Shown here: positions 2,470-61,696 of the stretch, piece by piece
Layout of the letters: each line of letters begins with the position of its first letter
Numbering within the stretch: position 1 is the first letter of the stretch
DNA from: an uncultured bacterium
Lineage (GTDB): Bacteria > Verrucomicrobiota > Kiritimatiellia > CAIVKH01
Direction of reading: 5' to 3'
DNA: 64,000 bases
NCBI GenBank assembly: GCA_903906425.1
Contig: CAIVKH010000124.1
Location: 35,981 to 99,980 of the forward strand
Notes under the pieces: model-generated
What the model saw: the letters and a program-made list of their open reading frames with translations, nothing else
Told to the model about the DNA's origin: nothing
The model's database searches: none
Translations under genes and position numbers: made by a program

Positions 2470-2516
2470 TTCCAATCATTGGAAGTTTGCGCGGCCGGAT
2501 TTTCCAATCATTGGAA
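2470..2516. repeat. REP cluster 1: two copies of the TTCCAATCATTGGAA palindrome.
   Basis: Exact copies at 2470-2484 and 2502-2516, 32-bp pitch. Lies between two same-strand genes. Confidence 0.95.
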
Positions 2517-2526
2517 GTTTTCGCTT

Positions 2527-3339
2527 TCACGCGAGCGCCTCCTGGCCGGCGAGCACGCGGGCGATGAAATTTGCGACGGTGTCGCGCGTGCGCGGGACGG
2601 CGATCAACGCTTTGAGTTTTTCGATGTTCGCCTCGTAGCGTTCGGGTGCGCCGGCGGGCGCATCGGGCAATTTGCTCCCGGGAATCAGCGCGGCGATTTC
2701 GCGAATGGTGATCAGGCCGTCGCCGCAGCAGTTGACGATTTCGTTGCGGCAGTTTTTCGCGAGCAGTTCGAAGGCGAGCGCGGCAAGGAAGCGGCTGTCG
2801 AGATATTGATAGGCGGAGTCGGGATGAACGCGCAGCGGCGTGCCTTTGAGCAAATCATAGATCGAATTTTTCCGCAGGCCGGGGCCGACGAAGCCGCCCA
2901 TGCGCAGGACGAGCCATTGCGGTGCGAAGTGCCGGACGAGTTGCTCGGCGAGAAGTTTGTGGAAGCCGTACGGCGAAAGCTTCGCGGTTTCGATGACGCA
3001 ATCCTCGCGGTTGTTCGCGGGATTCTTCACGTCGCTGTACACGTCAATCGTGGAAAGGTGGACGTGCATGACCGCCTTGAAGTCGTGGAGCGATGCGTGG
3101 ACGGAGCGGACGGACAGGTCGAAATCGAGCGGCGGATTTTCGCGCGCGAGAAACTTTTTCGAGTTGCCGTTGGCGTTGACGAGCAGGTCGCAGGACATGC
3201 CGCGATGCTGGTCGTAATTCTGGCGCGTGATGCCCGTGGTTTCGAAGCCGCGTCGCTGCGCCTCGGCGACGACGGCCGAGCCGATGAAACCGCCCGCACC
3301 AATCACGATACAAACGGGCCGCTGCGGGTTCGCGGCCAT
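2527..3339 (-). CDS. NAD(P)-dependent epimerase/dehydratase (SDR family).
   Basis: 270-aa ORF with an N-terminal Rossmann motif, CIVIGAGGFIGSAVV. Sits in the sugar-nucleotide operon. Confidence 0.7.
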   Translation of the reverse strand: MAANPQRPVCIVIGAGGFIGSAVVAEAQRRGFETTGITRQNYDQHRGMSCDLLVNANGNSKKFLARENPPLDFDLSVRSVHASLHDFKAVMHVHLSTIDVYSDVKNPANNREDCVIETAKLSPYGFHKLLAEQLVRHFAPQWLVLRMGGFVGPGLRKNSIYDLLKGTPLRVHPDSAYQYLDSRFLAALAFELLAKNCRNEIVNCCGDGLITIREIAALIPGSKLPDAPAGAPERYEANIEKLKALIAVPRTRDTVANFIARVLAGQEALA

Positions 3340-4292
3340 CAGAGGCGCGCCTCACCGCGCGCGCGCGCTGCAACGAACCATTCGGCGGTGCGCTTGAGCC
3401 CGGCCTCGAGCGTCGTGTCGCATGAGAGGCCGAGCGAGTGAAGCCGGCGCACGTCGAAAATCTTGTCGATCTGCCCGTCGGGCTTCGTGGTGTCCCAGAC
3501 TATTTCGCCGGGGAACCCGGTGACTTTCTTCACGGTGTCCGCAAGCTCGCGGATCGAAATGCGGCGGCCGGCGGAGATGTTCACCGGATCGCTGGAATCG
3601 TAGTTGGCGAGGAACCACGGGATCGTCGCGGCGACGTCGCCTGCGTATACGAAATCGCGCGTGGGACGGCCGGTGCCGAAGGCGGTCATTTCTTTGCGAC
3701 CGGCTTCCTTCGCCTCGATATATTTGCGGATCATCGCGGGGATGACGTGCGCCTGCTCAAGATTGAAGTTGTCCCATTCGCCGTAGAGGTTGCCGGGGAT
3801 CAGCGTGACGGCGTTGAAACCGTATTGCTTGCGATACGCCCACGATTGGATGAGCAGCATCTTCTTCGCGATCGAGTAGCCGAGGCTGTCGACCTGCGGA
3901 AGTCCATTCCACATCTGGTCCTCGTCGATCGGCGAGGTGGCCGTTCCGGGGTAGGAACAGCCGCCCATCAGCGCGAGGAATTTCTTCGCGCCGCCGCGCC
4001 ACGCCTCGTGCATGACGTGGGTGCAAAAAACGATGTTGTCGTAGTAGTACTGCGCCGGCCGGTTGCGATTGTCCACGATTCCGCCGGATTTCGCCGCGAG
4101 ATGCACGACGCAGTCGGGCTGGACATCTCGGATCATCTTTTCCGGCGTGCCGGGTTTGAGCAGGTCGTAGTCCTTGCTGCTCACGCAGACGAATTCGGCT
4201 TCGAACGTTTCGCGGAGCCTCGGCAAAATGTGGTGGCCGAGGAAACCGGTTGCGCCGGTTACCAGAATCCGTTTGAACCGCTTGTCTTTCAT
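3339..4292 (-). CDS. GDP-L-fucose synthase-like extended SDR (GDP-4-keto-6-deoxy sugar epimerase/reductase).
   Basis: ILVTGATGFLGHHI Rossmann motif, YSIAKK (YxxxK) catalytic motif, and the GNLYGEWDNF...HVIPAMIRK block typical of Fcl/WcaG-type enzymes. Confidence 0.7.
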   Translation of the reverse strand: MKDKRFKRILVTGATGFLGHHILPRLRETFEAEFVCVSSKDYDLLKPGTPEKMIRDVQPDCVVHLAAKSGGIVDNRNRPAQYYYDNIVFCTHVMHEAWRGGAKKFLALMGGCSYPGTATSPIDEDQMWNGLPQVDSLGYSIAKKMLLIQSWAYRKQYGFNAVTLIPGNLYGEWDNFNLEQAHVIPAMIRKYIEAKEAGRKEMTAFGTGRPTRDFVYAGDVAATIPWFLANYDSSDPVNISAGRRISIRELADTVKKVTGFPGEIVWDTTKPDGQIDKIFDVRRLHSLGLSCDTTLEAGLKRTAEWFVAARARGEARL

Positions 4293-4546
4293 GACGAGAC
4301 CGAATCACGGTAGCCCACATCCGATGGTGAGCAAGGACGGGTGATGATTAGCGGCGACGTGGCTGTTTTTGCGAATATTTTCATTTGCGATGCGTGCGCG
4401 CTTGTAGCATCCCGTCATTTTCCATGTCAATCGGGCGGCTGTGACAGACGCACGCGAGGGCTGCGAATGACGCCCGGAGGCGTTTAGTCTTGCGCTGGTT
4501 TTGCAGGGACTATTAACTGCGCCGCCTATCGACAGGATGAAACTGC

Positions 4547-6173: not shown

Positions 6174-6220
6174 TTCCAATGATTGGGAAAAGCGGCAGGG
6201 CAAACTTCCAATCATTGGAA
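6174..6220. repeat. REP cluster 2: two copies, the first with a 1-nt insertion.
   Basis: ttccaatgattgggaa at 6174-6189 and ttccaatcattggaa at 6206-6220. Confidence 0.9.
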
Positions 6221-7056: not shown

Positions 7057-7998
7057 TCAACTGAAGCCGTAGGTGTCTTTGACGATGAAGTTGGGGCGGC
7101 CCTTGATGTCGCGGTGGATCTTGCCGACGTAGATGCCGAGGATGCCGATGGTGAATAGAATCGTGCCGCCCAGGAAGATCATCGCGAGCGCCAGCCAGGA
7201 GACGCGCGAGCCGAAACCGAGGACGCTGGCGATGACGGCGAAGAACAGATAGATGAACGACAGGATCGAAACGATCATGCCGGCGAAGAGCGCGAAGTAC
7301 AGCGGCAGCGAGGAGAAGAGTGTGAGGCCGCGGATGAATTCCTTGTAGGGATTCGCGCTGCGCCACAGCGAAAACTTCGTCTCGCCGGCGAAGCGCGCCT
7401 CGCGTTCGTAGAACACCTGCACCTGCTTGAAGCCGACCCACGAGACCAGCCCGCGCATGAAAGGATCGAATTCGCCGAGCTTCAGAAGCTCAGACATGGC
7501 GCGGCGCGAGATGAGTTTGAAATCGCCGGTGTTTTCCAGAAGCGTGATGTCGGACATGGAGTTGATGGCGCGGTAGGCGGCCTTCGTGAGCGCCATCTTG
7601 AAGGCGTTCTCGCCGTGGCGGGCGGTGCGGGTGGTGTGAACGACATCGGCGCCCTTCTGCCATTCCGCGACGAGTTGCGGAATCAGTTCGGGCGGGTCCT
7701 GCAAGTCGCAATCCATGTACACGACCGCGTCGCCGGTGGCGTGATGGAATCCGGCGAGCACGCCGGGGGTGACGCCGAAGCGGCGGGACAGATTGACGAT
7801 CTTGACCTCGGGTGCGGTGGTTTCGTGCAGCTTGACGAGGATGTCGAGCGAGGCGTCGGTGGAGTTGTCGTTGACGAAGATGAATTCGCGGCGCAGCGGC
7901 AGCGGCGCGAGCGCGTCCTGCAGGCGCTTCACCAGTTCAGGAATGTTGTCGGCTTCGTTGCGGAACGAGAAGACGACGGACAGCAGCGGATTTTCCAT
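7057..7998 (-). CDS. Polyprenyl-phosphate glycosyltransferase, GT2 (GtrB/ArnC-like).
   Basis: MENPLLSVVFSFRNEADNIPELV...FVNDNSTD...YMDCDLQDPPE (DxD) plus two C-terminal TM helices. The ORF-track N-terminus (7999-8181) is REP read-through, so I placed the start at ATG 7998. Confidence 0.8.
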   Translation of the reverse strand: MENPLLSVVFSFRNEADNIPELVKRLQDALAPLPLRREFIFVNDNSTDASLDILVKLHETTAPEVKIVNLSRRFGVTPGVLAGFHHATGDAVVYMDCDLQDPPELIPQLVAEWQKGADVVHTTRTARHGENAFKMALTKAAYRAINSMSDITLLENTGDFKLISRRAMSELLKLGEFDPFMRGLVSWVGFKQVQVFYEREARFAGETKFSLWRSANPYKEFIRGLTLFSSLPLYFALFAGMIVSILSFIYLFFAVIASVLGFGSRVSWLALAMIFLGGTILFTIGILGIYVGKIHRDIKGRPNFIVKDTYGFS

Positions 7999-8088
7999 GA
8001 CAAACGGCCTCTCAAAATCGGCGGCAACTATGTTGATCCGCGAATCGATTGCAAGTCCCGATGCCAGCGCCGGCGCCGGGCCGATGGT

Positions 8089-8135
8089 TTCCAATGATTG
8101 GAAACTGCGGCAGCGCAGACTTCCAATGATTGGAA
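8089..8135. repeat. REP cluster 3: two copies of TTCCAATGATTGGAA.
   Basis: 8089-8103 and 8121-8135, in a divergent intergenic region. Confidence 0.95.
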
Positions 8136-8262
8136 ATTGCGATGTTTTGCGGCCGCTCGATCGCGCGGGGCGCAGGCGCATAATCGGGCCGGAAACCGGG
8201 GCGTTGGGGGCGGCTTGAGGATTGACAGGGGCGAAGGCGGACGTGTATGTACCGCGCCCTTT

Positions 8263-9501
8263 ATGACACCTTTTCCGGCCTCAAATTCTGTCGAAGATCC
8301 GGCCCTGACCGGCAAGACTTTCCGCAGCCAGCGTTACGATCTGGCGGTGGACACGATTTCGCGCGAGGAGATCGACGAGGTCATCAAGTGGCTGCAGGGT
8401 TATCCGCGCCTGACGATGGCCGACGAGACGAAGCGCTTCGAGGAGATGTGGTCGAAGTGGCTGGGCGTGAAGTACAGCGTGATGTGCAACTCGGGTTCGT
8501 CCGCGAATCTGCTGATGTACGCCGCCGCCGAGTCGTCGGGCCGCGCAAAGAAAAAGAAGATCATCGTGCCGGCGACGGGCTGGGCCACGACGATTGCGCC
8601 GGCCGTGCAATTCAACTGGCAGTCGGCGATGTGCGAGTCGTCGCGCAAGACGTTCGGCATGGATCCCGATCAGCTCGCTAAACTTTGCGAGCAGCACAGG
8701 CCGGAGGCGGTGATCGTTGTTCCGGTGCTCGGCGTGCCGTACGACGTGGACGCGATTCTGGAACTGAAGAAGAAATATGGTTTCATGCTTTTCGAGGATT
8801 GCTGCGCGAGCCACGGCGCGTTGCACAAGGGCCAAAAGATCGGAACGTTTGGCGACATGTCGTCGTTCTCGTTTTACTACGGCCACCACATGTCCACAAT
8901 CGAAGGCGGCGTCGTCAGCACGAATGACGAGGAGCTTTATCACCACCTGCTGATGCTCCGCAGCCACGGCTGGCTGAAGGATCTTCCGCAGGAGCTCGCC
9001 GACGCGACGAGGGCGAAATACGGGATCGATAATTTCCGGCAGCCTTTCACGTTCGTGATCCCCGGCTACAACCTGCGCCCGACCGATCTGAACGCGATCA
9101 TCGGCATGCTTCAGCTCAAGAAGCTCGACGCCACGGTGCAGCGCCGCGCTTCGAATCATCTCGTTTATCAGAAGGAACTCGCCGGCGTCGTCGAATTCGC
9201 GCCCGGGCTTCCCGGCGATACGATCAGCAGCATCTCGTTCTGCGCGGTGGCGCGCAGTTCGGCGGAGCGGAAGAAGATCGTCACCGAGCTCGACAAGAAC
9301 AAGATCGATACGCGGATTTTCACAGCTGGCAATCTCGGCTGTCATCCGTTTTGGTTTGAACGCTTCGGCAAGTTCTCGGCACCCGTCGCCGACTGGCTGA
9401 ACCAGGGTGGCTTCTTCCTGCCGAACAACCAGACGCTGGACCGCCCTGAAATCGAGTGGATTTGTGGTATCGTCCGCGATGCTGCAAAACGGAGCGGTTA
9501 A
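8263..9501 (+). CDS. DegT/DnrJ/EryC1/StrS-family PLP/PMP enzyme, RfbH (sugar 3-dehydrase)-like.
   Basis: LTMADETKRFEEMWSKWLGVKYSVMCNSGSSANLL...FSFYYGHHMSTIEGG. The NSGSSANL and xGHHxxxxEGG blocks are the RfbH/DegT pattern. Start moved to ATG 8263, downstream of the REP pair. Confidence 0.7.
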   Translation: MTPFPASNSVEDPALTGKTFRSQRYDLAVDTISREEIDEVIKWLQGYPRLTMADETKRFEEMWSKWLGVKYSVMCNSGSSANLLMYAAAESSGRAKKKKIIVPATGWATTIAPAVQFNWQSAMCESSRKTFGMDPDQLAKLCEQHRPEAVIVVPVLGVPYDVDAILELKKKYGFMLFEDCCASHGALHKGQKIGTFGDMSSFSFYYGHHMSTIEGGVVSTNDEELYHHLLMLRSHGWLKDLPQELADATRAKYGIDNFRQPFTFVIPGYNLRPTDLNAIIGMLQLKKLDATVQRRASNHLVYQKELAGVVEFAPGLPGDTISSISFCAVARSSAERKKIVTELDKNKIDTRIFTAGNLGCHPFWFERFGKFSAPVADWLNQGGFFLPNNQTLDRPEIEWICGIVRDAAKRSG

Positions 9502-9504
9502 TTG

Positions 9505-11007
9505 ATGTCTGCCAAGACTGACCTCGTCGTCATCTATCCCAACAACCGCGTCATCGCCTATGGCGACTTGATGCACGAAATCGCCGCGGTCACGCCGCCG
9601 GTCGATGCCGGCCTGATGGTCGCCTCGGTCCGCCACGCGGGACACAGCGTGATCATGCTCGATGCCGAGCAGAAGAATCTTTCCGCGCGCGAGGCCGCCG
9701 CCGAGGCGATCAAAGTTCATCCGCGCCTGATCTGCATCTGCACCGATTTCGTGAACTCCGGCGACGTGACCAAGATGGCCGCGGCGGTCGCCACGCTTCG
9801 CGAAATCAAGGCGGTCAACCGCGGGATTCCCGTGATCATGCAGGGCGTCGTGCCTTCCGCGTATCCCGAAAAGATGCTGAACGAGGAAGGTTGCGACCTC
9901 ATCTGCCAGGGCGAGCCGTACGAAGTGCTGCCCGACCTTCTCCAGTGGATGAAGGATCACGAAGGCGAGACGTGCCCGCCGCAAGACATGGTCGATGGAG
10001 TGTGGGGTTTCCGCGACGGCAAGCTCGTCACGAGCCGACGCCGGCCGATGATCGATCCGAATAAGATGCAGGATATGCCGTGGGACCTGATGCCGCCGAC
10101 GCTCTATCGCGCGCACCACTGGCACTGCTTCGACACGCTCGACCGCCGTACGCCTTACGCAGCCCTGTACACGAACCTCGGCTGCCCGTTCGGCTGCACG
10201 TTCTGCAGCGTCAACGTCGTCGCCGGCCAGTCGAACTTCCGCCAGCGCTCGGTCGATAACGTCATGTCGGAGATTGATCTGCTCGTGACGAAGTACGGCG
10301 TGCGCAACATCCGGCTTCTCGACAACGTCTTCACTATCCGCCTCGATCTCGTCGAGGAGCTTTGCGACAGGATCATCGACCGCGGCTACGACCTGAACTT
10401 CTGGGCCTACGCCCGCGTCGAAACGATCCGCAACATCGACATCCTCCACAAGATGAAGAAGGCCGGCGTCAACTGGCTGGCCTACGGCATCGAGGCCGCG
10501 AGCGAGCGCGTCCGCAAGGCCGTGGACAAGAACACGAATCCGAAATTCATCGAGCGCGCCATCGAGATGACGCAGCAGGCGGACATCGCCATCGTCGGCA
10601 ATTTCATCTTTGGCCTGCCGGAAGACGACATGGAATCCATCCAGATGTCGTTCGACATGGCCAAGCACTACAACTTCGAGTGGGCGAATTTCTACTGCGC
10701 GATGGCGTATCCCGGAACGATCCTCTACGACCAAATGATCAAGGAGGGTGTCGAACTGCCCAAGACATGGTCGGGCTTCGGCCAGTACTCCGCCGACGCG
10801 CTGCCCCTTTCGACGAAATATCTGAAGTCTGCCGAGATCCTGAAATTCCGCGACGAAGCGTTCGTCGAGTACTACACGAATCCGGCTTACTACAAGATGC
10901 TCGAAGCGAAGTTCGGCCCGGCCGCCGTGGACTTCGTGAAGAAGATTCTTTCGATCAAACTTCCCAAACGCAAACACGTCCAGGCCGAGACCCTCGCGGA
11001 GTCCTGA
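9505..11007 (+). CDS. B12-binding radical SAM enzyme (class B).
   Basis: The N-terminal roughly 150 aa look like a cobalamin-binding domain. The CPFGCTFC cluster (CxxxCxxC) follows YTNLG. The ATG lies 3 nt after the DegT stop. Confidence 0.75.
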   Translation: MSAKTDLVVIYPNNRVIAYGDLMHEIAAVTPPVDAGLMVASVRHAGHSVIMLDAEQKNLSAREAAAEAIKVHPRLICICTDFVNSGDVTKMAAAVATLREIKAVNRGIPVIMQGVVPSAYPEKMLNEEGCDLICQGEPYEVLPDLLQWMKDHEGETCPPQDMVDGVWGFRDGKLVTSRRRPMIDPNKMQDMPWDLMPPTLYRAHHWHCFDTLDRRTPYAALYTNLGCPFGCTFCSVNVVAGQSNFRQRSVDNVMSEIDLLVTKYGVRNIRLLDNVFTIRLDLVEELCDRIIDRGYDLNFWAYARVETIRNIDILHKMKKAGVNWLAYGIEAASERVRKAVDKNTNPKFIERAIEMTQQADIAIVGNFIFGLPEDDMESIQMSFDMAKHYNFEWANFYCAMAYPGTILYDQMIKEGVELPKTWSGFGQYSADALPLSTKYLKSAEILKFRDEAFVEYYTNPAYYKMLEAKFGPAAVDFVKKILSIKLPKRKHVQAETLAES

Positions 11008-11634: not shown

Positions 11635-11636
11635 CC

Positions 11637-12188: not shown

Positions 12189-12235
12189 TTCCAATCATTG
12201 GAACTTGCCCGCCCGATAACTTCCAATCATTGGAA
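12189..12235. repeat. REP cluster 4: two copies.
   Basis: 12189-12203 and 12221-12235, between convergent genes. Confidence 0.95.
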
Positions 12236-17677: not shown

Positions 17678-17789
17678 TTCCAATCATTGGAAAAACCCGA
17701 CGTCGAAATCTTCCAACCATTGGAAAACCCGCGGCGGCAATTTTCCAATCATTGGAAATGCGGCAGCCGGAATCTTCCAATCATTGGAA
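17678..17789. repeat. REP cluster 5: four copies.
   Basis: 17678-17692, 17711-17725 (ttccaaccattggaa, one mismatch), 17743-17757 and 17775-17789. Pitch 33/32/32 bp. Confidence 0.95.
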
Positions 17790-23671: not shown

Positions 23672-23719
23672 TTCCAATGATTGGAAAAGTCCGGTGGCGT
23701 AATCTTCCAATGATTGGAA
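23672..23719. repeat. REP cluster 6: two copies.
   Basis: 23672-23686 and 23705-23719. Together they fill almost the whole 61-bp intergenic gap. Confidence 0.95.
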
Positions 23720-25774: not shown

Positions 25775-25821
25775 TTCCAATGATTGGAAATTGCGGCGGC
25801 GGTTTTTTCCAATCATTGGAA
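25775..25821. repeat. REP cluster 7: two copies.
   Basis: 25775-25789 (G centre) and 25807-25821 (C centre), between convergent genes. Confidence 0.95.
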
Positions 25822-30972: not shown

Positions 30973-31416
30973 GTGGATGTCGATACCGGCGGGGAGCGGT
31001 TTCTTTACATGCATCCCAAGTGGGGCCACCCGGCCTGGCAGTCCGATTCGCGCACCATCGTCGAGGCGGGCAATCTGCTTTTCGACAGCGACACCGGCAG
31101 GAGCCGGAAGATCCCCGAACTGCCGTATTTCGGTTCCGGTCATCCCTCCGCCAGTCCGGACAGCACGCTTCTGGTCACCGACACGACGATGGATCGCGTC
31201 GGCGGGAATCCGAAGGAGTGGGGAATCGTCGTCGCCGACATGCGCGGGACAAACTTCGTCGTGGTTCATCACTTCGACAATTCACGCGGCGCACACTCAT
31301 GGCGCTCGTCGCATCCGCATCCCGTGTTCAGCGCCGACGGACGCCGCATCTATTTCAACGTGAGCAGCGGCCCCTGGACGCAATTGTTCGTCGCCGCCCA
31401 AGAGAAGTTCCAATGA
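30973..31416 (+). pseudogene. C-terminal remnant of a TolB-like / oligogalacturonate-lyase-like beta-propeller gene.
   Basis: The 147-aa ORF opens with GTG only 47 nt from the divergent Kelch start. It reads like the last blades only (SHPHPVFSADGRRIYFNVSSGPWTQLFV) and has no N-terminal domain or signal peptide. Confidence 0.4.
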
Positions 31417-31487
31417 TTGGAAACAAGCGATGACGGAAACTTCCAATCATTGGAACTCCACGCTGCGACAGCTTCCAAAGACTGGAA
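31408..31487. repeat. REP cluster 8: two canonical copies plus one variant.
   Basis: 31408-31422, 31441-31455, and the variant ttccaaagactggaa at 31473-31487. Confidence 0.9.
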
Positions 31488-32887: not shown

Positions 32888-32934
32888 TTCCAATCATTGG
32901 AAATCACCGCCGCGACAACTTCCAAAGATTGGAA
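32888..32934. repeat. REP cluster 9: one canonical copy plus one variant.
   Basis: 32888-32902, and the variant ttccaaagattggaa at 32920-32934. Confidence 0.9.
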
Positions 32935-36722: not shown

Positions 36723-36769
36723 TTCCAATCATTGGAAAACTCCGCCGCGCAAACTTCCAATCGTTGGAA
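36723..36769. repeat. REP cluster 10: two copies.
   Basis: 36723-36737 and 36755-36769 (ttccaatcgttggaa, one mismatch). Confidence 0.9.
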
Positions 36770-41178: not shown

Positions 41179-41225
41179 TTCCAATGATTGGAAGTTTGCG
41201 GGCCGCATTTTTCCAATCATTGGAA
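41179..41225. repeat. REP cluster 11: two copies.
   Basis: 41179-41193 (G centre) and 41211-41225 (C centre), between the E2 stop and the E3 start. Confidence 0.95.
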
Positions 41226-45661: not shown

Positions 45662-45708
45662 TTCCAATCATTGGAAGTTATCGCGCCCTCATTTTCCAAT
45701 CATTGGAA
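45662..45708. repeat. REP cluster 12: two copies.
   Basis: 45662-45676 and 45694-45708, between convergent genes. Confidence 0.95.
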
Positions 45709-46814: not shown

Positions 46815-46862
46815 TTCCAATCATTGGAAAACTGCGCGCCCGCTCTTTTCCAATGATTGGAA
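46815..46862. repeat. REP cluster 13: two copies.
   Basis: 46815-46829 and 46848-46862, in a divergent intergenic region. Confidence 0.95.
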
Positions 46863-49265: not shown

Positions 49266-49312
49266 TTCCAATGATTGGAAAATTGCGCGACCCAGTTTTC
49301 CAATCATTGGAA
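49266..49312. repeat. REP cluster 14: two copies.
   Basis: 49266-49280 (G centre) and 49298-49312 (C centre). Confidence 0.95.
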
Positions 49313-51656: not shown

Positions 51657-51703
51657 TTCCAATGATTGGAAGTTCCGGTTCCGGATTTTTCCAATCATTG
51701 GAA
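51657..51703. repeat. REP cluster 15: two copies.
   Basis: 51657-51671 (G centre) and 51689-51703 (C centre), between the parA stop and the OmpA-like start. Confidence 0.95.
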
Positions 51704-51740
51704 ATTTTCTTGAGCTGCTGCGGAAAGTTTTTTTCATGGT

Positions 51741-52707: not shown

Positions 52708-53151
52708 ATGAAAAACATTCGCAACTTTCTGCTGGGTCTCATTGCCCTTTGTCTTCTCGCGGCCTGTGCCAGCACGCCGACATCGCGCATCAAGAAGAAT
52801 CGGGATTTGTTCAACTCCTATCCGCCGGAGGTGCAGACGAAGATTCAGAAAGGCGAAATTTCGCTGGGTTTCACCCCGGAAATGGTGCTCATGGCCAAAG
52901 GCGATCCGGACCGGAAATACACGCGCCAGACCGCGAAAGGCGCGACCGAAGTCTGGGCCTACACCGGAACCTATTCGACCACCGACCGGCAGCGCGTTCA
53001 GACCCGCGTCCATGCGCCGGATGTCGGCGGAGTCTGGCACGACTATAATGACTGGGTCACGGTGGACGTTCCGCGCCAGCACGAATTCGACCAGTTCCGC
53101 GTCGAATTCGAGGACGGAAAAGTCTCCGCCTTCGAAGCGCAGTCGAAGTAA
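52708..53151 (+). CDS. Lipoprotein, function unknown.
   Basis: Lipobox LLAAC in MKNIRNFLLGLIALCLLAACAST, 147 aa. Confidence 0.65.
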   Translation: MKNIRNFLLGLIALCLLAACASTPTSRIKKNRDLFNSYPPEVQTKIQKGEISLGFTPEMVLMAKGDPDRKYTRQTAKGATEVWAYTGTYSTTDRQRVQTRVHAPDVGGVWHDYNDWVTVDVPRQHEFDQFRVEFEDGKVSAFEAQSK

Positions 53152-53184
53152 GCCTGCCGCCAAATCTCTTCCGCGCGCTCGTCG

Positions 53185-54354: not shown

Positions 54355-55418
54355 TGGTCGTTCCGTAAAAATTTCATCGCGGCCTCGTAGGCGGGCTTCG
54401 GTTTGTACGGCTGTTTTTCGTCGCCAGTCTTCGCGTGCGAAACCAGGCCGAAATGGTGCTCCGGCTCCTTCGGATCGGTCCCGTCGTCATGCCAGTCGTA
54501 CCAGATCGTGACCGGAATTTTTTCCGCGCGGTTCACCGTGAATTCCTGCGTGACGCGCTCGGCCTGCTTCGCCTCGTCGTAATTTTTCCACGCCGCGGAG
54601 TAGCCCCACTCGCCGGCAAGAATCGGAATGACGCGGCCTGGCGGCGCATATTTCGCGATCATCGCGCGCAGCTTCGTATATTCATTCGTGACGTTCCCCG
54701 GCGCTTGCTGCCGGTAAGGATGAACCGAGACGGCATCCCAAAAATTCAGCAGCCCGGCCTGAAAACACGGCTCGATGAACTTGAAATCAATGAGCGACGT
54801 CGCCGGACCGACGAGCGCCTCGCCCGGCGCAGCCTCGCGGACGGCCTTCGCGGTCGCCAGCGCGAGCGCGGCGTAGTTCGTCACGTTTGGCGTCGGTTTC
54901 CAGAATCCGATATTCGGCTCGTTCCAAGTTTCCCAGATGTAGCCGCGGCCCGCGAAATGGTTCACGCTCGCGGCGGCCCAGCGCGCAAACGCGGCACGGC
55001 CCTCGTCGGTGAACGGCGACTCGCCTTTGTCGTAGTTGTGATTGCCGTAGTCGAAAATGAAATAGGCCTTCAGCCCGTTCTTTTCGAGATCGGCCACGAG
55101 CCCGTCGTAAGCCGAAAAATCATATTTGCCTTTTTCGCGTTCGATCGCGGCCCAATGAAAATCCATGCGGACCCACGTGAACCCCGCGCGCTGGATCATC
55201 GCCAGCTCGCCGGGAATCTGCTTCGTGAAATGAATGTTCACGCCGAATTCCGGCGCGCGCGGCAGCGACGAATGCATCTGTGGCATGGTCGCGCAGGCCG
55301 TGAGCGCGCCGCCGAGGATCAGAATTTCCAATGATTGGAAAATGCGGCGGCGGAAATTTCCAATGATTGGAAACCATCGCAGCGGGAGGATCGGGCCGGC
55401 GGAAACTGGATTTTGCAT
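54351..55418 (-). CDS. Clan GH-A glycoside hydrolase (GH5/GH39-like).
   Basis: FGVNIHF...GFTWVRMDFHW...YIWETWNEPN (acid/base Glu) and ILAGEWGYS (nucleophile Glu). Start uncertain: ATG 55418 includes two REP copies that would encode a lipoprotein-like signal, while ATG 55286 gives no signal. Confidence 0.65.
   Translation of the reverse strand: MQNPVSAGPILPLRWFPIIGNFRRRIFQSLEILILGGALTACATMPQMHSSLPRAPEFGVNIHFTKQIPGELAMIQRAGFTWVRMDFHWAAIEREKGKYDFSAYDGLVADLEKNGLKAYFIFDYGNHNYDKGESPFTDEGRAAFARWAAASVNHFAGRGYIWETWNEPNIGFWKPTPNVTNYAALALATAKAVREAAPGEALVGPATSLIDFKFIEPCFQAGLLNFWDAVSVHPYRQQAPGNVTNEYTKLRAMIAKYAPPGRVIPILAGEWGYSAAWKNYDEAKQAERVTQEFTVNRAEKIPVTIWYDWHDDGTDPKEPEHHFGLVSHAKTGDEKQPYKPKPAYEAAMKFLRNDQ
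55326..55372. repeat. REP cluster 16: two copies.
   Basis: 55326-55340 and 55358-55372 (both G centre). Confidence 0.95.
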
Positions 55419-55537
55419 GGGCGGGGAGGCTGGCACAAAAGGCCGCCCGGCGACAAGCATCGTGTCGCGTTTTGTTGTGTCGCGCTTGACGCCACGGGGC
55501 GGCATCGCGGATAAACGCCGCTCCGAAGGAATTTTTT

Positions 55538-56449
55538 ATGGCTGCAAAACCGACAGGACTCGGGCGCGGGCTGGGCGCGCTCATCAAAGACACGCAGGCG
55601 GGCGAATCCGAAACGCTGGCCGCTGCGCCGACGAAAGGCGGCGTCGCGCGCATCGCGGTCGGGCAGATCCGCCGCAGCCCGTGGCAGCCGCGGCATACGT
55701 TCGAGCAGGAGGCGCTGGGCGAACTCATCGCGTCGGTCCGTGAACGCGGCGTTTTGCAGCCGCTGCTCGTGCGCCGCAGCGGCGAAAAATTCGAGCTGAT
55801 CGCCGGCGAACGCCGGCTGCGCGCCGCGATGGACGCCGGGTTGATTGACGTGCCGGCCATCGTCATGGAGGTGACCGACCGCGAGGCGCTCGAAATTGCG
55901 CTGGTCGAAAATTTGCAGCGGGCCGATTTGAACCTGATCGAGGAGGCCGAGGGCTATCGCGCACTCTCCGAAAAATTCCAGATGACGCAGGAGCAGATCG
56001 CCACGCGCGTCGGCAAGGCCCGGCCGACCGTCGCAAACGTGATGCGGCTGCTCGAACTTCCCGACGCGGTGAAACAGTTCGTGGCCGAAAAACGGCTTAC
56101 GCCCGGCCACGCGAAGGCGCTGCTCGGCCTGGAAAACCGCAAGGAAATGGAGCTGCTCGCCGCGCGCGCCGTCAACGAGGACCTGTCGGTCCGCACGTTG
56201 GAACACATCGTCGCGCGGACGAAACGCGAGCCGTCGAAACCGCGCGAGGAAAAGTCCGACATTCCCGATCAGCACATAAAATATCTGGTCGAACGCCTGC
56301 ACCAGCATTTCGGAACGCACGTCCGCCTGACGCCGTGCCGCACGTTCGCGAACGGAAAGAAGGTCAAGGGCGTCATCGAACTGGATTACCATTCCAGCGA
56401 CGAACTCGATCGGCTCCTGGTGATTCTCGGGATCACGGAGTCGTTTTGA
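55538..56449 (+). CDS. parB: Chromosome-partitioning protein ParB/Spo0J.
   Basis: MAAKPTGLGRGLGALI N-terminus, the GERRLRAA ParB box, and an HTH (QEQIATRVGKARPTVANVMRLLEL). Confidence 0.92.
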   Translation: MAAKPTGLGRGLGALIKDTQAGESETLAAAPTKGGVARIAVGQIRRSPWQPRHTFEQEALGELIASVRERGVLQPLLVRRSGEKFELIAGERRLRAAMDAGLIDVPAIVMEVTDREALEIALVENLQRADLNLIEEAEGYRALSEKFQMTQEQIATRVGKARPTVANVMRLLELPDAVKQFVAEKRLTPGHAKALLGLENRKEMELLAARAVNEDLSVRTLEHIVARTKREPSKPREEKSDIPDQHIKYLVERLHQHFGTHVRLTPCRTFANGKKVKGVIELDYHSSDELDRLLVILGITESF

Positions 56450-57555
56450 GTTCCGATGAAAATACCGCCGACACCCGCGCGCAGGCCGCCGACACCGCAC
56501 GGGCACGGGTTTTTCTCCTGCGCGCCGCCGCCTCGTTCGTCGCGCTGGTCGCCTACCAGCTTTCCGGCGCGTCGGCACACCTGATCGCCGGGCTCGGCGC
56601 GCGCTTCAGCGGCTCGTGGTTTCCGGTTCACGCGATCTACATCGTCATTTCGCTCTTTGGCCTCGGCGTGCTGATGCTGCCGTTCAGCCTCTACGAAGAC
56701 TTCATCCTCGAAGCCCGCGAGACCGGCGAGGAAACGGATTTCGAGGAATGGACCATCGAAATCCTCAAGGTCATCGGCATGGATCTTCTGGCCGGATCGG
56801 CATTCTTCCTCGCGATCTACGGTCTGCTCGAATGGCTGCCGCGCGCGTGGTGGATCGTCGCCGCCGCGATCTACGGCGTCATCAATTGCGTCACGACAAT
56901 CCTTCCGATGCTGCAAGGCCCGGCCGAGGATGAACTGGCTGAACTGCGCGAGCCGGTCCTGCGCGAGCGTTTCTCCGCCATTTTGAAGCAATGCGGGCAG
57001 CGCGATTTCGAAGTGCTGCGCTGGCAGGGCGAGGGTTCGAACCAGCAATCCATGCTCGCGCTGCAAGGCATCGGCAAGCGCCGCCGGATCGTCATCAGCG
57101 AAGCGATGCTCCGCGATTTCACCGCCGATGAAATCGCCGCCCTGCTTGCACACGAAGCCTCGCATCTGCGCAGCTTCGACACGATGCGGCTGAACATTCT
57201 GAGTTTTATCGCCGCACTGCTCGGCTTTGCCGCCACGAACGCGCTGATGAAGATTTTCGGCGCGTGGTTCGATTGCCCGCCGAGCGGCGACCTCGCCGCG
57301 TTTCCGATTTTCACCGGCACGTTGCTCGCCGTCTCCTTTGCCGGCCTTCCGCTGCTCAATGCTTTTTCCCGCCGTCGCGAATATGTCGCCGACATTGTCG
57401 CCGCCCGGATCGCCGGCGAGATTCCGCTTCGCGAAGCGCTCGAAAAATTGAACGACGGCGGTCCCGCCGCGACGCCCGGCACCGTGCTCGACCTGTTTCT
57501 CGAAAGCCACCCCGGCCTGCATCAACGCCTCTGGCGGTTGAACAACAAGCGGTGA
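56446..57555 (+). CDS. M48-family zinc metalloprotease (membrane).
   Basis: HEASH (HExxH) zinc-binding motif, several TM helices, and C-terminal ESHPGLHQR. TTG 56446 overlaps the parB stop (TTGA), with GGAG 5 nt upstream. Confidence 0.7.
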   Translation: MSSDENTADTRAQAADTARARVFLLRAAASFVALVAYQLSGASAHLIAGLGARFSGSWFPVHAIYIVISLFGLGVLMLPFSLYEDFILEARETGEETDFEEWTIEILKVIGMDLLAGSAFFLAIYGLLEWLPRAWWIVAAAIYGVINCVTTILPMLQGPAEDELAELREPVLRERFSAILKQCGQRDFEVLRWQGEGSNQQSMLALQGIGKRRRIVISEAMLRDFTADEIAALLAHEASHLRSFDTMRLNILSFIAALLGFAATNALMKIFGAWFDCPPSGDLAAFPIFTGTLLAVSFAGLPLLNAFSRRREYVADIVAARIAGEIPLREALEKLNDGGPAATPGTVLDLFLESHPGLHQRLWRLNNKR

Positions 57556-57576
57556 GAGCGGCAGCAGAGGCGGCGG

Positions 57577-58410
57577 TTATTTCGCCGTCTGCCCGCAACG
57601 TGGCTGGAGAATTTTCTTCACGGCCGCGCCGGCATCCTTGCTGCGATAGATTTGCTGCTCGACCCAGTTGGCGGCCTTTTCGAAAACATCCGCCGGCGCC
57701 CATTCGTGTCCGCCATCGAACATGAACGTCTCGAAATGCCCGCTGCCGATCGCGGCTTTCATTCTCGGAACCTCGCTCTTGTTTTTGTCCTTTTCGCCCA
57801 TCGTCATCGCAACGAAGACGGCGTGGGACCCCTTGAGTTTGGCCACGTCATAAATTCCGCGCGAATCGGACGCGCCGCCCGCGCTCTGCATGATCAGGCC
57901 CGCGAAGCCGGGCCGGAGTTGTTCGAAAACGCTGCTGGCGCGCGCGCCGCCGGACTGGCCGGTCGCAAGTTTGAGCCCCTCCTGGATGCGCACGCGTTTG
58001 ACGACATCATCGTGCGCCGCGAGAAAATTTCCGATGATCGGCGGCCACGGCCCGTTCTTGGATTCGACGAGCATGACGACGACATAGCCGTTGACCTTCA
58101 GCCACGACGCCATGTTGCCCATGTTTGCGTTGCCGCCGGCCGACGCGATGAACATGCACGGCCACGCCTGCTTCGCATCAGCGTTGTAGCCTTTCGGCAA
58201 CCAGAGCTTGTAGTGGTAGGCGCCCTTCGCCGCGTCATAATCCTTCGCCGTGAACACCGGCACCTCGTTCTTCTTCGGCGCCTGCGTCAGTTCGCAGGCG
58301 ATCGTGATTTCCTTTTGCTCCTGCAATGCCTGATCGGGCGGCGTCGTTTCAGCGCGAACAGCGGGAGCGGAGCAAAGGCACAACAAGATGAACCATCGAA
58401 GAATTTTCAT
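57577..58410 (-). CDS. Secreted alpha/beta-hydrolase (esterase).
   Basis: Signal MKILRWFILLCLCSAPAVRA and a GQSGG nucleophile-elbow motif. Confidence 0.6.
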   Translation of the reverse strand: MKILRWFILLCLCSAPAVRAETTPPDQALQEQKEITIACELTQAPKKNEVPVFTAKDYDAAKGAYHYKLWLPKGYNADAKQAWPCMFIASAGGNANMGNMASWLKVNGYVVVMLVESKNGPWPPIIGNFLAAHDDVVKRVRIQEGLKLATGQSGGARASSVFEQLRPGFAGLIMQSAGGASDSRGIYDVAKLKGSHAVFVAMTMGEKDKNKSEVPRMKAAIGSGHFETFMFDGGHEWAPADVFEKAANWVEQQIYRSKDAGAAVKKILQPRCGQTAK

Positions 58411-58452
58411 GCGTGAAGAATTACCGGCCGGCCCCGCCAGGGGCAACATTCA

Positions 58453-58734
58453 TCAACGCGCGCCAGCGAGGCGTTTTTCCTTCCGCTTCTTCTTTTTGTT
58501 GTGCGCCGCGGGCCCGCCGACCGCCGTCTCGTGATACCACTCCCGGTGCGGCGAAAACTGGCCGCACTTCAGGCACTGCGTCTCCGCCCACGCGTGGCCG
58601 CACGCCGGACAAATTCCGCCCGTCTCAAACGTGTTCCAAGAATTCCCGCACTCCGGCTTGCAGAACCATCGCGACGCCGGATTCGGCCGCCACCTGCACT
58701 TCGGACAAAAGATTTCGATGCGCCGCGCGCTCAT
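58453..58734 (-). CDS. Small zinc-ribbon protein with a Lys-rich tail.
   Basis: CPKC...C..EC and CPAC...CLKC cysteine pairs, 93 aa. Confidence 0.45.
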   Translation of the reverse strand: MSARRIEIFCPKCRWRPNPASRWFCKPECGNSWNTFETGGICPACGHAWAETQCLKCGQFSPHREWYHETAVGGPAAHNKKKKRKEKRLAGAR

Positions 58735-58800
58735 TGTTTCGCCTCGTCAACGCGTGAATCTGTACACGATCCGCCCGCCGGGGCAAGCGGCCGCGATAAG

Positions 58801-58879
58801 TTCCAATGATTGGAAATTCCGCCGCCGCAAACTTCCAATCATTGGAAAAACACGGTTCGGAAATTTCCAATCATTGGAA
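58801..58879. repeat. REP cluster 17: three copies.
   Basis: 58801-58815, 58833-58847 and 58865-58879, exact 32-bp pitch. Confidence 0.95.
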
Positions 58880-58939
58880 CTCACGAAGCGAAACAGAAAA
58901 ATCGACATCGCGGCAGGCGTCGCATTTAATCGCGCGCCG

Positions 58940-59893
58940 ATGAAGAAAACCTGTCTTGTCATTTGTTCGCTTCTCGTTTTCGGCTGCACGGTGGAGAAGA
59001 AACCCGCTCCGCCGCCGCGGCAATTTGATCCGGCGCAGTTCGACGGGAAGAAGGCGCTGTTCGAGGCGGTCGGGCTCGTCGGCCAGGGCGCGCGCGATGG
59101 CGGAACGCCGGGCGCGGAGAAGGCGGCGAATTATCTGGCGAAGCGGTTGCAGGCCGCAGGCGTCGCCGCAGAAATTGACGCGTTCACGAACATGACGCCG
59201 CGCGGGCCGCGAATTTTCCGAAACGTCATCGGGAAATTGCCGGGCGATAGCACGAATCTGATTCTCGTCTGCTCGCATTTCGACACGAAGCCCGGCATCT
59301 GCGAAAATTTTCAGGGCGCGAACGATTCGGGTTCGTCTAGCGGCGTGCTGCTCGAACTGGCGCGCGTGCTCGCGAAACGCGAAAAGCGCGGACCGGAAAT
59401 TCAGCTCGTGTTCTTCGACGGCGAGGAATCTTTACACGAATATTCCGAAATTGATGGCTTTCATGGCAGCCGTTTCTACGCGCAGAAACTCGTCGAGCAG
59501 GGCCGCGCGAAAAACACGCAGATGATCCTACTGGACATGATCGGCGATCAGAATCTCACCGTCACCTTGTCGAACAACAACGATCCGAAACTGGCGACAA
59601 TGTTCCTGCAGGCGGCCGAAGCCGATGGCTCGCGGGCGCATTTTCAGTTGTGGCCATATCAGATCGGCGATGACCACTCGGCGTTTCTCGAACGCGGAAT
59701 TCCGGCGGTGGACATCATTGATTTCGACTACGGCAGCGCGCCGGGACGAAACGATTACTGGCACACGCTGGCCGACACGACCGACAAGCTTTCCGCCGAC
59801 AGCCTGCAAATCATCGGGCGCTGCACGATCCGCGTCTTGAACGCGCTGGTCGCCGAGGATGCGGTCAAAACCGCTTCAGCAAATTCAAAATAA
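58940..59893 (+). CDS. M28-family metallopeptidase / glutaminyl-cyclase-like lipoprotein.
   Basis: Lipobox LVFGC, then [27 protein letters not shown] and VFFDGEE metal-ligand blocks. Confidence 0.75.
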
Positions 59894-60074
59894 GCGTCAG
59901 CACGACGCTGACGATGATCATCGAGGTGATCGGAATGAAGATGAGGCCGTTTCCCTTTTCGATGCGGATGTCGCCGGGAAGTTTTCCGAACCACGACAGC
60001 GCGCCCGGCGCGAAAACCAGCAGCGCTCCGACCGCGGCGACGGCGAGACCGACAATGATCAGAAATTTTCCCAT
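59865..60074 (-). CDS. DUF2905-family small membrane protein.
   Basis: 69 aa with two TM helices flanking [14 protein letters not shown]. Confidence 0.65.
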
Positions 60075-60113
60075 CGGCTTTTCTTTGCGATGAATGACGG
60101 CTATTGTTCCCGC

Positions 60114-60425
60114 ATGAGCCTACTTGTTGTCCACGTTCAGGTGCATGTCAAACCGGAGTGCGTCGAGGCGTTCAAGGCCGCGACGATGGAGAACGCGCAG
60201 AACAGCGTCCGCGAGGCGGGCATCGCGCGGTTCGACGTCGTGCAGCAGGCGGACGATCCAACACGCTTCGTGCTCGTCGAGGCGTACAAGACGCTCGACG
60301 CTCCCGCGAAACACAAGGAAACCGCGCACTACACGAAGTGGCGCGATGCCGTTGTGCCGATGATGGCCGAGTCACGAACCAGCGTAAAATTCGCAAACGT
60401 TTTCCCAGTCGACGGCGGTTGGTGA
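60114..60425 (+). CDS. Antibiotic-biosynthesis-monooxygenase (ABM) domain protein.
   Basis: 103 aa, [21 protein letters not shown]...[21 protein letters not shown]...HKETAHY. Confidence 0.7.
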
Positions 60426-61594
60426 TGAACTTCGAATTCGCCACAGCCACTCGGATTGTTTTCGGGCCGGGTTCGATCCAGCAGCTCGAAGCGATTTCGA
60501 AATCGCTCGGCGCAAAGCCGCTTCTGGTCATCGGAATCGCCCCGGCGCGCGTGCCGAAATCGGCGGCGTTTATTTCAGCGGCGACGATGAGCGTCGCGGG
60601 AGAGCCGACGTTCGATCTGGTCCGCGCGGGCGTCGCGAAGGCGCGCGAGGCGGGTTGCGATTCGGTGATTTCAATCGGCGGCGGCAGCGCGATTGATACG
60701 GGCAAAGCCATCGCAGCGCTGCTGACGAACGGCGGCGATCCGCTCGATTATGCGGAAGTTATCGGCGAAGGAAAGCCGATCACGAAGCCGTCGCTGCCGC
60801 TGATCGCGGTGCCGACGACGGCGGGCGCGGGCGCGGAGGTGACGCGCAACGCGGTGCTGTGTTCGACAGAACACAAATTCAAAGTGAGCTTGAGAAGTCC
60901 GACGATGCTTCCGACCGTCGCGCTCGTTGATCCCGAACTGACGCTCGATCTTCCGCCGGCGATTACGGCGGCGACGGGAATGGACGCGCTTTCGCAAGTG
61001 ATCGAGCCGTTCGTTTCGATTCGTTCGAATCCGATGGTGGACGCGATCTGCCGCGAGGGAATCATCCGAATCGCGCGATCAATTCGTGTCGCGTTCGAGG
61101 ACGGAAAAAATCTTGAGGCGCGGACCGACATGTCGCTGGGCGCGCTTTTCGGCGGGATGGCGCTGGCGAATGCGGGCCTCGGCGCGGTTCACGGTTTTGC
61201 CGCGCCGATCGGCGGGATGTTTCCCGCACCGCACGGCGCGGTTTGCGCGGCGCTGCTGGCGCCGGTGATGGAAATGAACATGGCGGCGCTGGCGGTTCGC
61301 GGAGCGGGTTCGCCGGTTTTGAAAATGTGGGAACACGGCGGTGCAAAATTGAACCGCTACGAAGTGCTCGCGTGTCTGCTGACGCATCGCACGGACGCGT
61401 CGGTGGCCGACGGCGTGGAATGGCTGCGGCTGCTTTCGCGTGATTTAAAAATTCCGGCGCTGCGAAACTTCGGCATCGGCGAGGCGGATGTCGCGACGAT
61501 CTGCGAGAAGGCAGCGGCGGCCAGCAGCATGAAGGCGAATCCGATTGTGCTGACGAAGGACGAGCTGACGGCGATTCTGCGCGCGGCGCTTTGA
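60425..61594 (+). CDS. Iron-containing (group III) alcohol dehydrogenase.
   Basis: VISIGGGSAIDTGKA, AVPTTAGAGAEVT and GAVHGFAAP blocks. The ATG overlaps the upstream TGA (TGATG). Confidence 0.85.
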   Translation: MNFEFATATRIVFGPGSIQQLEAISKSLGAKPLLVIGIAPARVPKSAAFISAATMSVAGEPTFDLVRAGVAKAREAGCDSVISIGGGSAIDTGKAIAALLTNGGDPLDYAEVIGEGKPITKPSLPLIAVPTTAGAGAEVTRNAVLCSTEHKFKVSLRSPTMLPTVALVDPELTLDLPPAITAATGMDALSQVIEPFVSIRSNPMVDAICREGIIRIARSIRVAFEDGKNLEARTDMSLGALFGGMALANAGLGAVHGFAAPIGGMFPAPHGAVCAALLAPVMEMNMAALAVRGAGSPVLKMWEHGGAKLNRYEVLACLLTHRTDASVADGVEWLRLLSRDLKIPALRNFGIGEADVATICEKAAAASSMKANPIVLTKDELTAILRAAL

Positions 61595-61649
61595 GGCAAG
61601 CCGTGGCGGGCACGATGTCCGATGCGGGCTGGCGCGGCGCGGCGGTTTT

Positions 61650-61696
61650 TTCCAATGATTGGAAATTGGGGGGCCGCGTTTTTTCAATCATTGGAA
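61650..61696. repeat. REP cluster 18: two copies, the second with one mismatch.
   Basis: 61650-61664 and tttcaatcattggaa at 61682-61696. Confidence 0.9.

Follow-up and report, generated by a model that had tools for sequence, protein, structure and literature searches.

Helically phased palindrome arrays in the intergenic DNA of Kiritimatiellia, putative binding sites of a cooperative dimeric protein

Results

The intergenic DNA of an uncultured bacterium of the class Kiritimatiellia (Verrucomicrobiota; contig CAIVKH010000124.1, positions 35,981 to 99,980, a stretch of 64,000 nucleotides hereafter called the window) carries clusters of a 15-bp palindrome, TTCCAATSATTGGAA, repeated at a nearly fixed pitch. 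We propose, with a probability of about one half, that these arrays are the binding sites of a putative cooperative dimeric protein and that they have spread by copy-paste and tandem duplication. The quantised pitch, the strand-indifferent G:C pair on the dyad and the selection acting on half-sites favour this reading. Paired sites for a dimeric protein had already been suggested by an earlier examination of the letters alone (the sequence-only reading); that suggestion gains from the three features just named, while the protein itself stays putative. We describe here the anatomy, phasing, selection pattern, distribution and turnover of the arrays, from which we infer the binding protein, its cooperativity, the wrapping of the DNA, the copying mechanism and the biological role.

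A dense family of clustered palindromes

The window contains 34 exact copies of the motif, against none in 100 dinucleotide-preserving shuffles, and 40 copies when up to three mismatches are allowed, where 1.5 are expected. All 40 are grouped in 18 clusters between 2470 and 61696 (15 doublets, two triplets, at 31408 and 58801, and one quadruplet, at 17678), with no singletons. The start-to-start pitch is 32 bp in 18 cases and 33 bp in four, and the centre base is C in 23 copies and G in 17, never A or T. The sequence-only reading had seen these 18 clusters, the absence of solitary copies, the pitch of 32 and occasionally 33 bp, the C or G centre and the eight clusters that begin with a G-centred and then a C-centred copy, and on all of these our counts agree. 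Its total of 42 copies and its division into 14 doublets, three triplets and one quadruplet, which sums to 41 copies, are replaced by the figures given here.

The dyad continues three bases outward on each side (A-W-Y...R-W-T), which gives a site of about 21 bp. Additional degenerate copies were sought at every phased distance from the cluster ends and none was found, nor any decayed copy; no target-site duplications are visible at the doublet borders. Contigs of the same organism from other samples lengthen the sequence by 7 kb and 5 kb and bring five more doublets at the same density, which is about one array per 3.5 kb in this genome. In the window and these flanks, pairs are inverted in 12 cases and direct in 11, and G-then-C doublets outnumber C-then-G doublets by 10 to 2. 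The G/C doublets fold into stems of at least 15 bp (−26 to −31 kcal/mol, z-scores −4 to −7), and doublet hairpins are stable on either strand (−18 to −31 kcal/mol).

The window motif is one dialect of a class-wide family

The sequence-only reading had proposed to look at the phylogenetic distribution of the motif, and the family does recur across Kiritimatiellia, in dialects. With one genome scanned per species, the exact doublet at the same pitch was found in several uncultured Verrucomicrobiota/Kiritimatiellia metagenome-assembled genomes (MAGs) and in a Pontiellaceae genome. These genomes have a GC content of 0.50-0.66, and each 8-kb locus holds one cluster only; array-bearing loci lie on many contigs of the same MAGs, adjoining unrelated genes. 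Relatives with 66-86% ParB identity have few copies, none, or variant copies: there is none in 17 kb of locus L010 or in 13 kb of locus L011, ParB identity being 80% for a relative with none in 17 kb. Loci L012, L013, L017 and L018 carry doublets at a 31-32-bp pitch with other central bases, and L018 also has a doublet upstream of its M28 peptidase gene.

We scanned metagenome contigs with the relaxed pattern TTCCA-N5-TGGAA, N17-18, TTCCA-N5-TGGAA and obtained at least 120 loci (593 kb among the matches listed). Among the matches listed, arrays hold 2-9 copies, central bases differ, and the dialects include TTCCAAGSCTTGGAA, TTCCAATGCTTGGAA, TTCCAAGGTTTGGAA and TTCCACACTGTGGAA. One locus of the TTCCAC dialect belongs to Kiritimatiellia by its ketol-acid reductoisomerase (KARI) homologues, and the window does so by its ParB homologues. 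Intergenic arrays of TTCCA-N5-TGGAA, with a G:C centre and A/T flanks, form a family that runs through Kiritimatiellia, and the window motif is one of its dialects. True arrays also occur in about 15 IMG/VR viral contigs with a GC content of 0.53-0.62. Seven low-GC viral contigs (L139, L145, L146, L148, L153, L160 and L161) were rejected as protein-coding tandem repeats with a 33-bp (11-codon) period that do not belong to this family. A literature search with the motif strings, and with Kiritimatiellia plus repeats, returned no description of the family in the library searched.

The long arrays of the TTCCAC dialect (7-9 copies at a 31-32-bp pitch) end in a tight pair at a 22-bp pitch, as seen in L136 at 14287-14532 (at both ends), in L124 at 11589-11812 and in L113 at 8719-8911. 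These end pairs suggest that arrays of this dialect have a defined architecture.

Copies are spaced by helical turns and conserve half-sites

In the metagenome loci, successive copies among the matches listed are 22 bp apart in 12 cases, 30-33 bp in 200 and 41-42 bp in eight; as each locus was selected for one 32-33-bp pair, only the remaining distances are unbiased, and these comprise 31 bp in 41 cases, 32-33 bp in at least 37 and all of the 22- and 41-42-bp cases. A single case at 16 bp was seen among the matches listed, and none at 17-21, 23-29, 34-40 or 43-61 bp. Many unrelated contigs contribute to the 22- and 41-42-bp classes, and the same classes appear again in the viral contigs. In turns of B-DNA, the three distance classes amount to two, three and four. 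Such helical-turn spacing is what proteins on a single face of the double helix require, and we see no rationale for it in the loop of an RNA or single-stranded DNA hairpin.

Conservation was analysed class-wide in 199 non-redundant neighbouring pairs. In 190 pairs both copies have G or C at the centre; positions 7 and 9 of the same copy complement each other in only about one case in three. Watson-Crick matches between copies at the variable positions stand at the permuted level (234 versus 230±11), whereas identities between neighbours in direct register far exceed it (335 versus 227±11), and direct pairs are commoner than inverted ones (120 to 70). On the basis of these three results, the long inter-copy hairpin is under no selection. 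The 15-bp RNA stem put forward by the sequence-only reading does fold physically, as described above, but shows no covariation between copies and is not what the family conserves. The likeness of neighbours as direct repeats, together with the excess of direct over inverted pairs, points to growth of the arrays by tandem duplication. On the transcribed strand of same-strand contexts the centre base is G in 99 cases and C in 84, that is, without strand bias. Purifying selection acts on the half-sites, not on pairing.

Related spacers and empty orthologous sites

The spacers had been described as not conserved in the sequence-only reading, which is half right: they are diverged, but the 17-nt spacers of the window share the consensus ATTSCGGCCGCGCAAAC and are related to one another, ranging from identical to unrecognisable. 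Spacer pairs that differ at no more than four positions number 25, compared with 8.6 after a column-preserving shuffle (P<0.0005) and 1.4 when the inner bases are shuffled (P<0.0005). Spacers of this type are also present in a species whose ParB is 81% identical. From this relatedness it follows that the window doublets are copies of a 47-bp cassette.

The palindromes of the window carry eight substitutions in 560 positions (about 1.4%), compared with a spacer divergence that we estimate at about 35-45% (mean pairwise distance 7.5/17); spacers are thus some 25 times more diverged than palindromes, yet their length is kept at 17-18 nt. The copies are old, and sites and spacing are under purifying selection.

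Orthologous sites are empty in L007, L010 and L011. Locus L007 shares the four genes at 250-4292 with the window, at 54-64% amino-acid identity, and there the two genes on either side of the 2470 doublet have a 4-nt overlap, with no element at the orthologous junction. This comparison shows that the element is gained or lost at operon junctions.

Gene context and effect on gene calls

The gene list of the window (56 curated genes) was corrected with the gene calls of public contigs of the same organism and with Pfam annotation. By this list intergenic DNA amounts to 5.8 kb (9% of the window) and holds all 40 copies; none lies inside a gene, as the sequence-only reading had claimed, and one overlaps a gene end. 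Its further statements that clusters stand in every gene context, operons included, and that the doublet at 23672-23719 sits in a 61-bp gap are likewise borne out by the list of clusters:

2470..2516: doublet, centres C and C, pitch 32; 82-bp gap between GHMP kinase and epimerase-like genes, both on the minus strand
6174..6220: doublet, centres G and C, one mismatch in the first copy; starts 16 nt past the stop of the 4547-6157 gene
8089..8135: doublet, centres G and G; divergent gap between a GT2 gene (start 7998, minus strand) and a DegT gene (start 8263, plus strand)
12189..12235: doublet, centres C and C; 81-bp convergent gap
17678..17789: quadruplet, centres C, C, C and C, pitches 33, 32 and 32, one mismatch in the second copy; 144-bp convergent gap
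23672..23719: doublet, centres G and G, pitch 33; fills the 61-bp gap between sulfatase and MFS transporter genes
25775..25821: doublet, centres G and C; 99-bp convergent gap between DUF190 and glycosyltransferase genes
31408..31487: triplet, centres G, C and G, pitches 33 and 32, two mismatches in the third copy; the TGA of the first copy is the stop of the open reading frame (ORF) 30973-31416
32888..32934: doublet, centres C and G, one mismatch in the second copy; convergent gap between two small genes
36723..36769: doublet, centres C and C, one mismatch in the second copy; between the inserted nSTAND1-histidine-kinase gene and the E1 dehydrogenase gene
41179..41225: doublet, centres G and C; 74-bp gap between the E2 and E3 genes of the 2-oxoacid dehydrogenase operon
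45662..45708: doublet, centres C and C; 72-bp convergent gap between APH kinase and Metallophos genes
46815..46862: doublet, centres C and G, pitch 33; divergent gap, the Metallophos start codon being 14 nt away and the start of the FG-GAP gene 107 nt away
49266..49312: doublet, centres G and C; 119-bp same-strand gap
51657..51703: doublet, centres G and C; between parA and an OmpA-family gene, both on the minus strand
55326..55372: doublet, centres G and G; divergent gap between a glycoside hydrolase gene, whose start codon is uncertain, and parB
58801..58879: triplet, centres G, C and C, pitches 32 and 32; divergent gap, with the M28 peptidase gene starting 61 nt downstream (58940)
61650..61696: doublet, centres G and C, one mismatch in the second copy; 55 nt past the stop of the Fe-ADH gene

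Among the window gaps that measure 47 bp or more, arrays are present in 5 of 5 convergent, 9 of 15 same-strand and 4 of 10 divergent ones. Within operons, doublets separate E2 from E3, the inserted gene from E1, parA from the OmpA-like gene and the sulfatase gene from the MFS transporter gene, and some doublets take up most of their gap. The next start codon downstream of a cluster can be as close as 8 nt or over 500 nt away, several doublets standing 8-25 nt upstream of start codons.

The warning of the sequence-only reading that translated copies inflate the N-termini of ORFs applies to public automated calls too, which translate arrays in the GT2 gene (from 8181) and in the hydrolase gene (from 55505). 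Calls or longest ORFs that read through an array are found at 7057-8181, 54351-55505 and 46520-49222 in the window and at 5102-6127 in L018. The GT2 protein is called at 374 aa where 313 aa is likely, the hydrolase at 384 aa and the M28 peptidase of L018 at 341 aa. The hydrolase may truly start at a TTG inside a motif copy, which would give it a short lipoprotein-like signal peptide (MEILILGGALTAC). The arrays thus mislead gene callers, public calls for at least three genes starting upstream of an array, and they also supply stop codons: the TGA inside TTCCAATGATTGGAA is the stop codon of the upstream ORF at window 31408-31416 and at L016 11908-11916, and insertion of the element may for this reason have re-terminated those two ORFs.

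An 898-aa antisense ORF at 8281-10977 was rejected as false, having no Pfam hit and no record in the collection searched, with the DegT gene and a radical-SAM gene on the other strand. The gene at 36825-39596 (minus strand) encodes a 923-aa nSTAND1 NTPase-histidine kinase and lies between the E3 and E1 genes; the GC content of the 36-40 kb bin is 0.52, compared with about 0.60 elsewhere in the window. This gene looks like a foreign insertion into the 2-oxoacid dehydrogenase operon.

A putative cooperative protein on phased sites

In the reading that we favour, the unit would be a dyad site TTCCA-N5-TGGAA of about 21 bp, with A/T flanks and a G:C pair on its axis, and a dimeric sequence-specific protein would bind each site in double-stranded form. 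Sites placed two, three or four helical turns apart would all face one side of the helix, so that neighbouring dimers could bind cooperatively or belong to one oligomer, with the DNA bent or wrapped round it; a doublet would hold two dimers and a quadruplet four. Copy-paste would have carried the sites into most intergenic gaps of this genome, in the manner of repetitive extragenic palindromic sequences (REP) and bacterial interspersed mosaic elements (BIME), and arrays would lengthen by tandem duplication of the 31-32-bp unit. As for their role, the arrays might serve as marks or insulators at gene boundaries, or as organisers of the nucleoid. The formation of long hairpins, in RNA or in DNA, would probably be a by-product.

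Several observations weigh against this reading. The window encodes no gene of the Lrp/AsnC family, and among the 150 genes that flank arrays, which matched 217 Pfam families, no family occurs more than three times. The density of the arrays and their presence in all five convergent gaps of the window are far above any ordinary regulon. The doublets form very stable hairpins, and on the transcribed strand G·U exceeds A·C by 43 to 25, a weak signal from counts that are not independent. In the long same-strand gaps of the window the array stands nearest the upstream stop codon, which a role at RNA 3′ ends would also explain. The related spacers could in part reflect constraint, not descent, and to these points has to be added the selection of metagenome loci by one 32-33-bp pair, already mentioned with the distances.

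A broader proposal can be made more tentatively, namely that Kiritimatiellia might have an unrecognised chromosome-marking system, in which a putative sequence-specific, oligomerising protein would wrap phased TTCCA-N5-TGGAA arrays in a large part of the intergenic regions, its specificity and its sites drifting together into dialects, and in which self-propagating cassettes would serve as insulators of gene boundaries or nucleoid organisers. If true, it would be a bacterial counterpart of the transposon-borne insulator sites of eukaryotes. Intergenic repeats are known in many bacteria, mostly with unsettled functions, and this family is unusually informative in extending over an entire, little-studied class, in its density and in having a spacing grammar. 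That grammar of two, three and four turns points to double-stranded recognition by a cooperative protein, and it makes the binding protein findable and a boundary or nucleoid role testable. The arrays could also be a marker for binning and classifying Kiritimatiellia contigs, viral ones included.

Alternative explanations

The strongest competitor, although we consider it improbable, is a mobile hairpin of the REP or REPIN (REP doublet forming a hairpin) kind, in which the doublet would fold as single-stranded DNA and be copied by a domesticated HUH/Y1 transposase, a REP-associated tyrosine transposase (RAYT), encoded elsewhere, any effect on the host being secondary. The arrays are strictly intergenic, their related spacers are what replication from master copies would leave, they are absent from orthologous sites in relatives, and their abundance varies by lineage. 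The stable doublet hairpins and the 10-to-2 preference for G-then-C in the window and flanks also suit this explanation. A GTAG or CGTC tag is what defines REP families, which are associated with RAYT transposases; the verrucomicrobium Opitutus terrae has repeats of the GTAG kind, and untagged REP-like families are an open class (PMC3733652). The arrays have the high copy number and extragenic position of REP, and their 15-21-bp perfect dyad falls at the short end of its 20-40-bp palindromes; on the other hand, neither GTAG or CTAC nor CGTC or GACG stands at the conserved positions of A-W-Y-TTCCAATSATTGGAA-R-W-T. The prevalence of direct over inverted pairs class-wide and the lack of covariation between copies also speak against it, and a single-strand hairpin gives no rationale for quantisation at 22, 32 and 42 bp. 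Moreover, the same half-sites are kept across the whole class, while REP sequences normally differ between species. No Y1_Tnp or RAYT gene is present among the genes of the window or the 150 flanking genes, the latter including no transposase of any family, and the sole Y1_Tnp fragment that we saw, in L013, adjoins a different repeat.

That fragment (93 aa, PF01797) lies at 1597-2131 of L013, directly after three tandem copies of TCAATAAGGGGTCGGTCCGCACATAG, and the two may form a REP/RAYT-type system of the conventional sort within this class, with no relation to the TTCCA family. The same locus holds a perfect 59-bp direct repeat (14302-14360 and 15163-15221, 861 bp apart) that covers the end of the IMPDH gene and may be a duplication footprint.

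It is also doubtful that the arrays act as RNA elements, that is, that transcribed doublet hairpins terminate transcription, or shield mRNA from 3′ exonucleases as REP does in E. coli malEFG, and so punctuate operons that have no canonical terminators. The hairpins are stable on either strand, and the occupancy of convergent, same-strand and divergent gaps in the window, the abutment of arrays on upstream stops in long same-strand gaps and the slight G·U excess agree with such a role. So does the lack of enrichment of terminator-like sites, of which 40000-59999 of the window has 32, compared with 28.5±5.5 in shuffled sequence; the organism may make little use of canonical Rho-independent terminators. 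None of these 32 sites lies at a cluster. The array stems are A/U-rich and followed by A-rich or mixed sequence, with no U-tract, and no cluster was called as a terminator.

Four of the window clusters lie in divergent gaps, which speaks against such a role. For the class-wide context we used a codon log-odds gene caller, which in validation found 50 of 51 independent reference genes, and dropped a GC-frame caller (35 of 56 genes). Gaps with arrays were 70 same-strand, nine convergent and ten divergent, against a background of 161, 29 and 41; occupancy differs little by gap type. Arrays stand at a median of 37 nt from the upstream stop and 46 nt from the downstream start, 38 of 70 arrays being nearer the stop. 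The 3′-end preference of the window arrays does not generalise to the class. The lack of inter-copy stem covariation and of strand bias in the centre base also argues against RNA elements, which moreover leave the quantised spacing unexplained.

The promoter, parS and uptake-sequence readings are unlikely. We give very little weight to sites for chromosome maintenance, either a lineage-specific ParB site of the parS/Noc type near the origin or a DNA-uptake sequence. The window does contain parA (51741-52601) and parB (55538-56449), with three unrelated genes in between. Canonical parS (TGTTNCACGTGAAACA) is not found within three mismatches in the 64-kb window around parAB, nor within two mismatches in the ParB-centred loci of five relatives (among L010-L014, L017 and L018); the window and all loci together give only two three-mismatch hits, which is the chance level. 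This absence agrees with the reading, as does the likeness of the half-site TTCCA(C) to the core of parS, and uptake sequences also have dialects and pairing. Nevertheless, arrays adjoin unrelated genes (217 gene families, many contigs of the same MAGs), none occur in the ParB-centred loci of close relatives, and their half-sites are 3 bp further apart than in parS. Phased arrays totally absent from coding DNA are unlike either parS or uptake sequences. Identity of the motif with the ParB/parS site was rejected, the arrays being far too widespread.

Two further candidates were rejected. The large TTCCAC-N3-GTGGAA arrays, in which each half of the site resembles the DnaA box TTTTCCACA, are not replication origins: there is no dnaA or dnaN nearby and a contig can hold several arrays, their neighbours being genes for CorA, an ABC transporter, a HAD hydrolase, a Fic protein and a radical-SAM protein. 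The Fur-type 7-1-7 box has the core AAT-N-ATT, which other dialects lack.

Bidirectional promoters, with TTGGAA of one copy as −35 and TCCAAT of the next as −10, can practically be dismissed: the 18-bp gap between them fits roughly and several doublets stand 8-25 nt upstream of starts, but all five convergent gaps carry arrays, start codons lie anywhere between 8 nt and over 500 nt away, no −35/−10 spacing is compatible with the pitches of 22 and 42 bp, and sigma-70-type sites in the 40-60 kb region are at shuffle level with none at a cluster.

Comparison with known systems

Searches for other element types were negative in the window: Rfam 15 has no match at gathering score on either strand, a tRNA scan found nothing, and the 15-bp repeats, related 17-18-nt spacers, 2-4 units per site and lack of cas genes in the window do not correspond to CRISPR, where repeats measure about 23 bp or more, spacers are unrelated and units are usually many.

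The arrays resemble REP and BIME, including clusters of the REP325 type, in being short palindromes that lie in intergenic DNA at hundreds of sites, clustered with linkers of fixed length, within operons and between convergent genes, with a presence that varies among relatives and with possible RNA hairpins. REP and BIME can bind proteins; in Kiritimatiellia the binding protein is putative. They are imperfect stem-loops with head and tail orientation and defined linkers, whereas the Kiritimatiellia units are perfect dyads with linkers of no defined motif, do not alternate in orientation, are more often direct, follow helical-turn spacing and keep their half-sites class-wide. The label of REP/BIME-like given by the sequence-only reading therefore holds for behaviour in the genome (intergenic position, related spacers, empty orthologous sites) and not for membership of REP or REPIN, with regard to tag, orientation and covariation: the family behaves like REP/BIME, yet is not a REP member by the criteria tested.

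With the REPIN-RAYT system (Bertels & Rainey; PMC3116915) the arrays share what in the window looks like a spreading unit made of a palindrome pair and its spacer, conserved arms with a looser spacer, apparently vertical inheritance and copy numbers that are very different between lineages. REPINs are defined by inverted arms, whereas here inverted pairs are not preferred (70 inverted to 120 direct class-wide, 12 to 11 in the window and flanks), arms do not covary and arrays reach nine units.

Like parS and Noc-binding sites (NBS) and the uptake sequences of Neisseria and Pasteurellaceae, the arrays are short, over-represented and lineage-wide, with dialects, and parS and NBS are palindromic as well. 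Uptake sequences are often paired after genes but are common inside genes and have no fixed pitch, and parS and NBS stand singly, with tens of sites in a genome. In Staphylococcus aureus, the STAR elements are intergenic direct repeats, rich in G+C and spaced by about 40 bp, with variable spacers and repeat number. Like the Kiritimatiellia arrays they consist of short conserved units at regular intervals, but they are not dyads and are not known to have phasing classes.

The three spacing classes are also those of the K-boxes of ComK in Bacillus subtilis, reportedly AAAA-N5-TTTT dyads that a dimer of dimers binds at intervals of two, three or four turns. K-boxes differ in being promoter-specific and limited to a small regulon, and in their sequence and lineage.

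In operator geometry the arrays match the Lrp/AsnC family, whose members BarR, AsnC and FL11 bind 15-bp semi-palindromic sites with spacers of 15-17 bp or 27-29 bp, the DNA wrapping an octamer (PMC10201364). Among the matches listed, the Kiritimatiellia sites of 15 bp have spacers of 15-18 bp (200 pairs) or 26-27 bp (eight pairs). In both cases the pitch is 30-32 bp with an alternative one turn longer; in Lrp/AsnC arrays one dimer occupies each site and two to four or more sites surround an oligomer. Those arrays serve few promoters and have A/T-rich centres, in contrast with the hundreds of G:C-centred arrays that occur in every intergenic context here. The match probably speaks to how the arrays work, not to which protein binds them.

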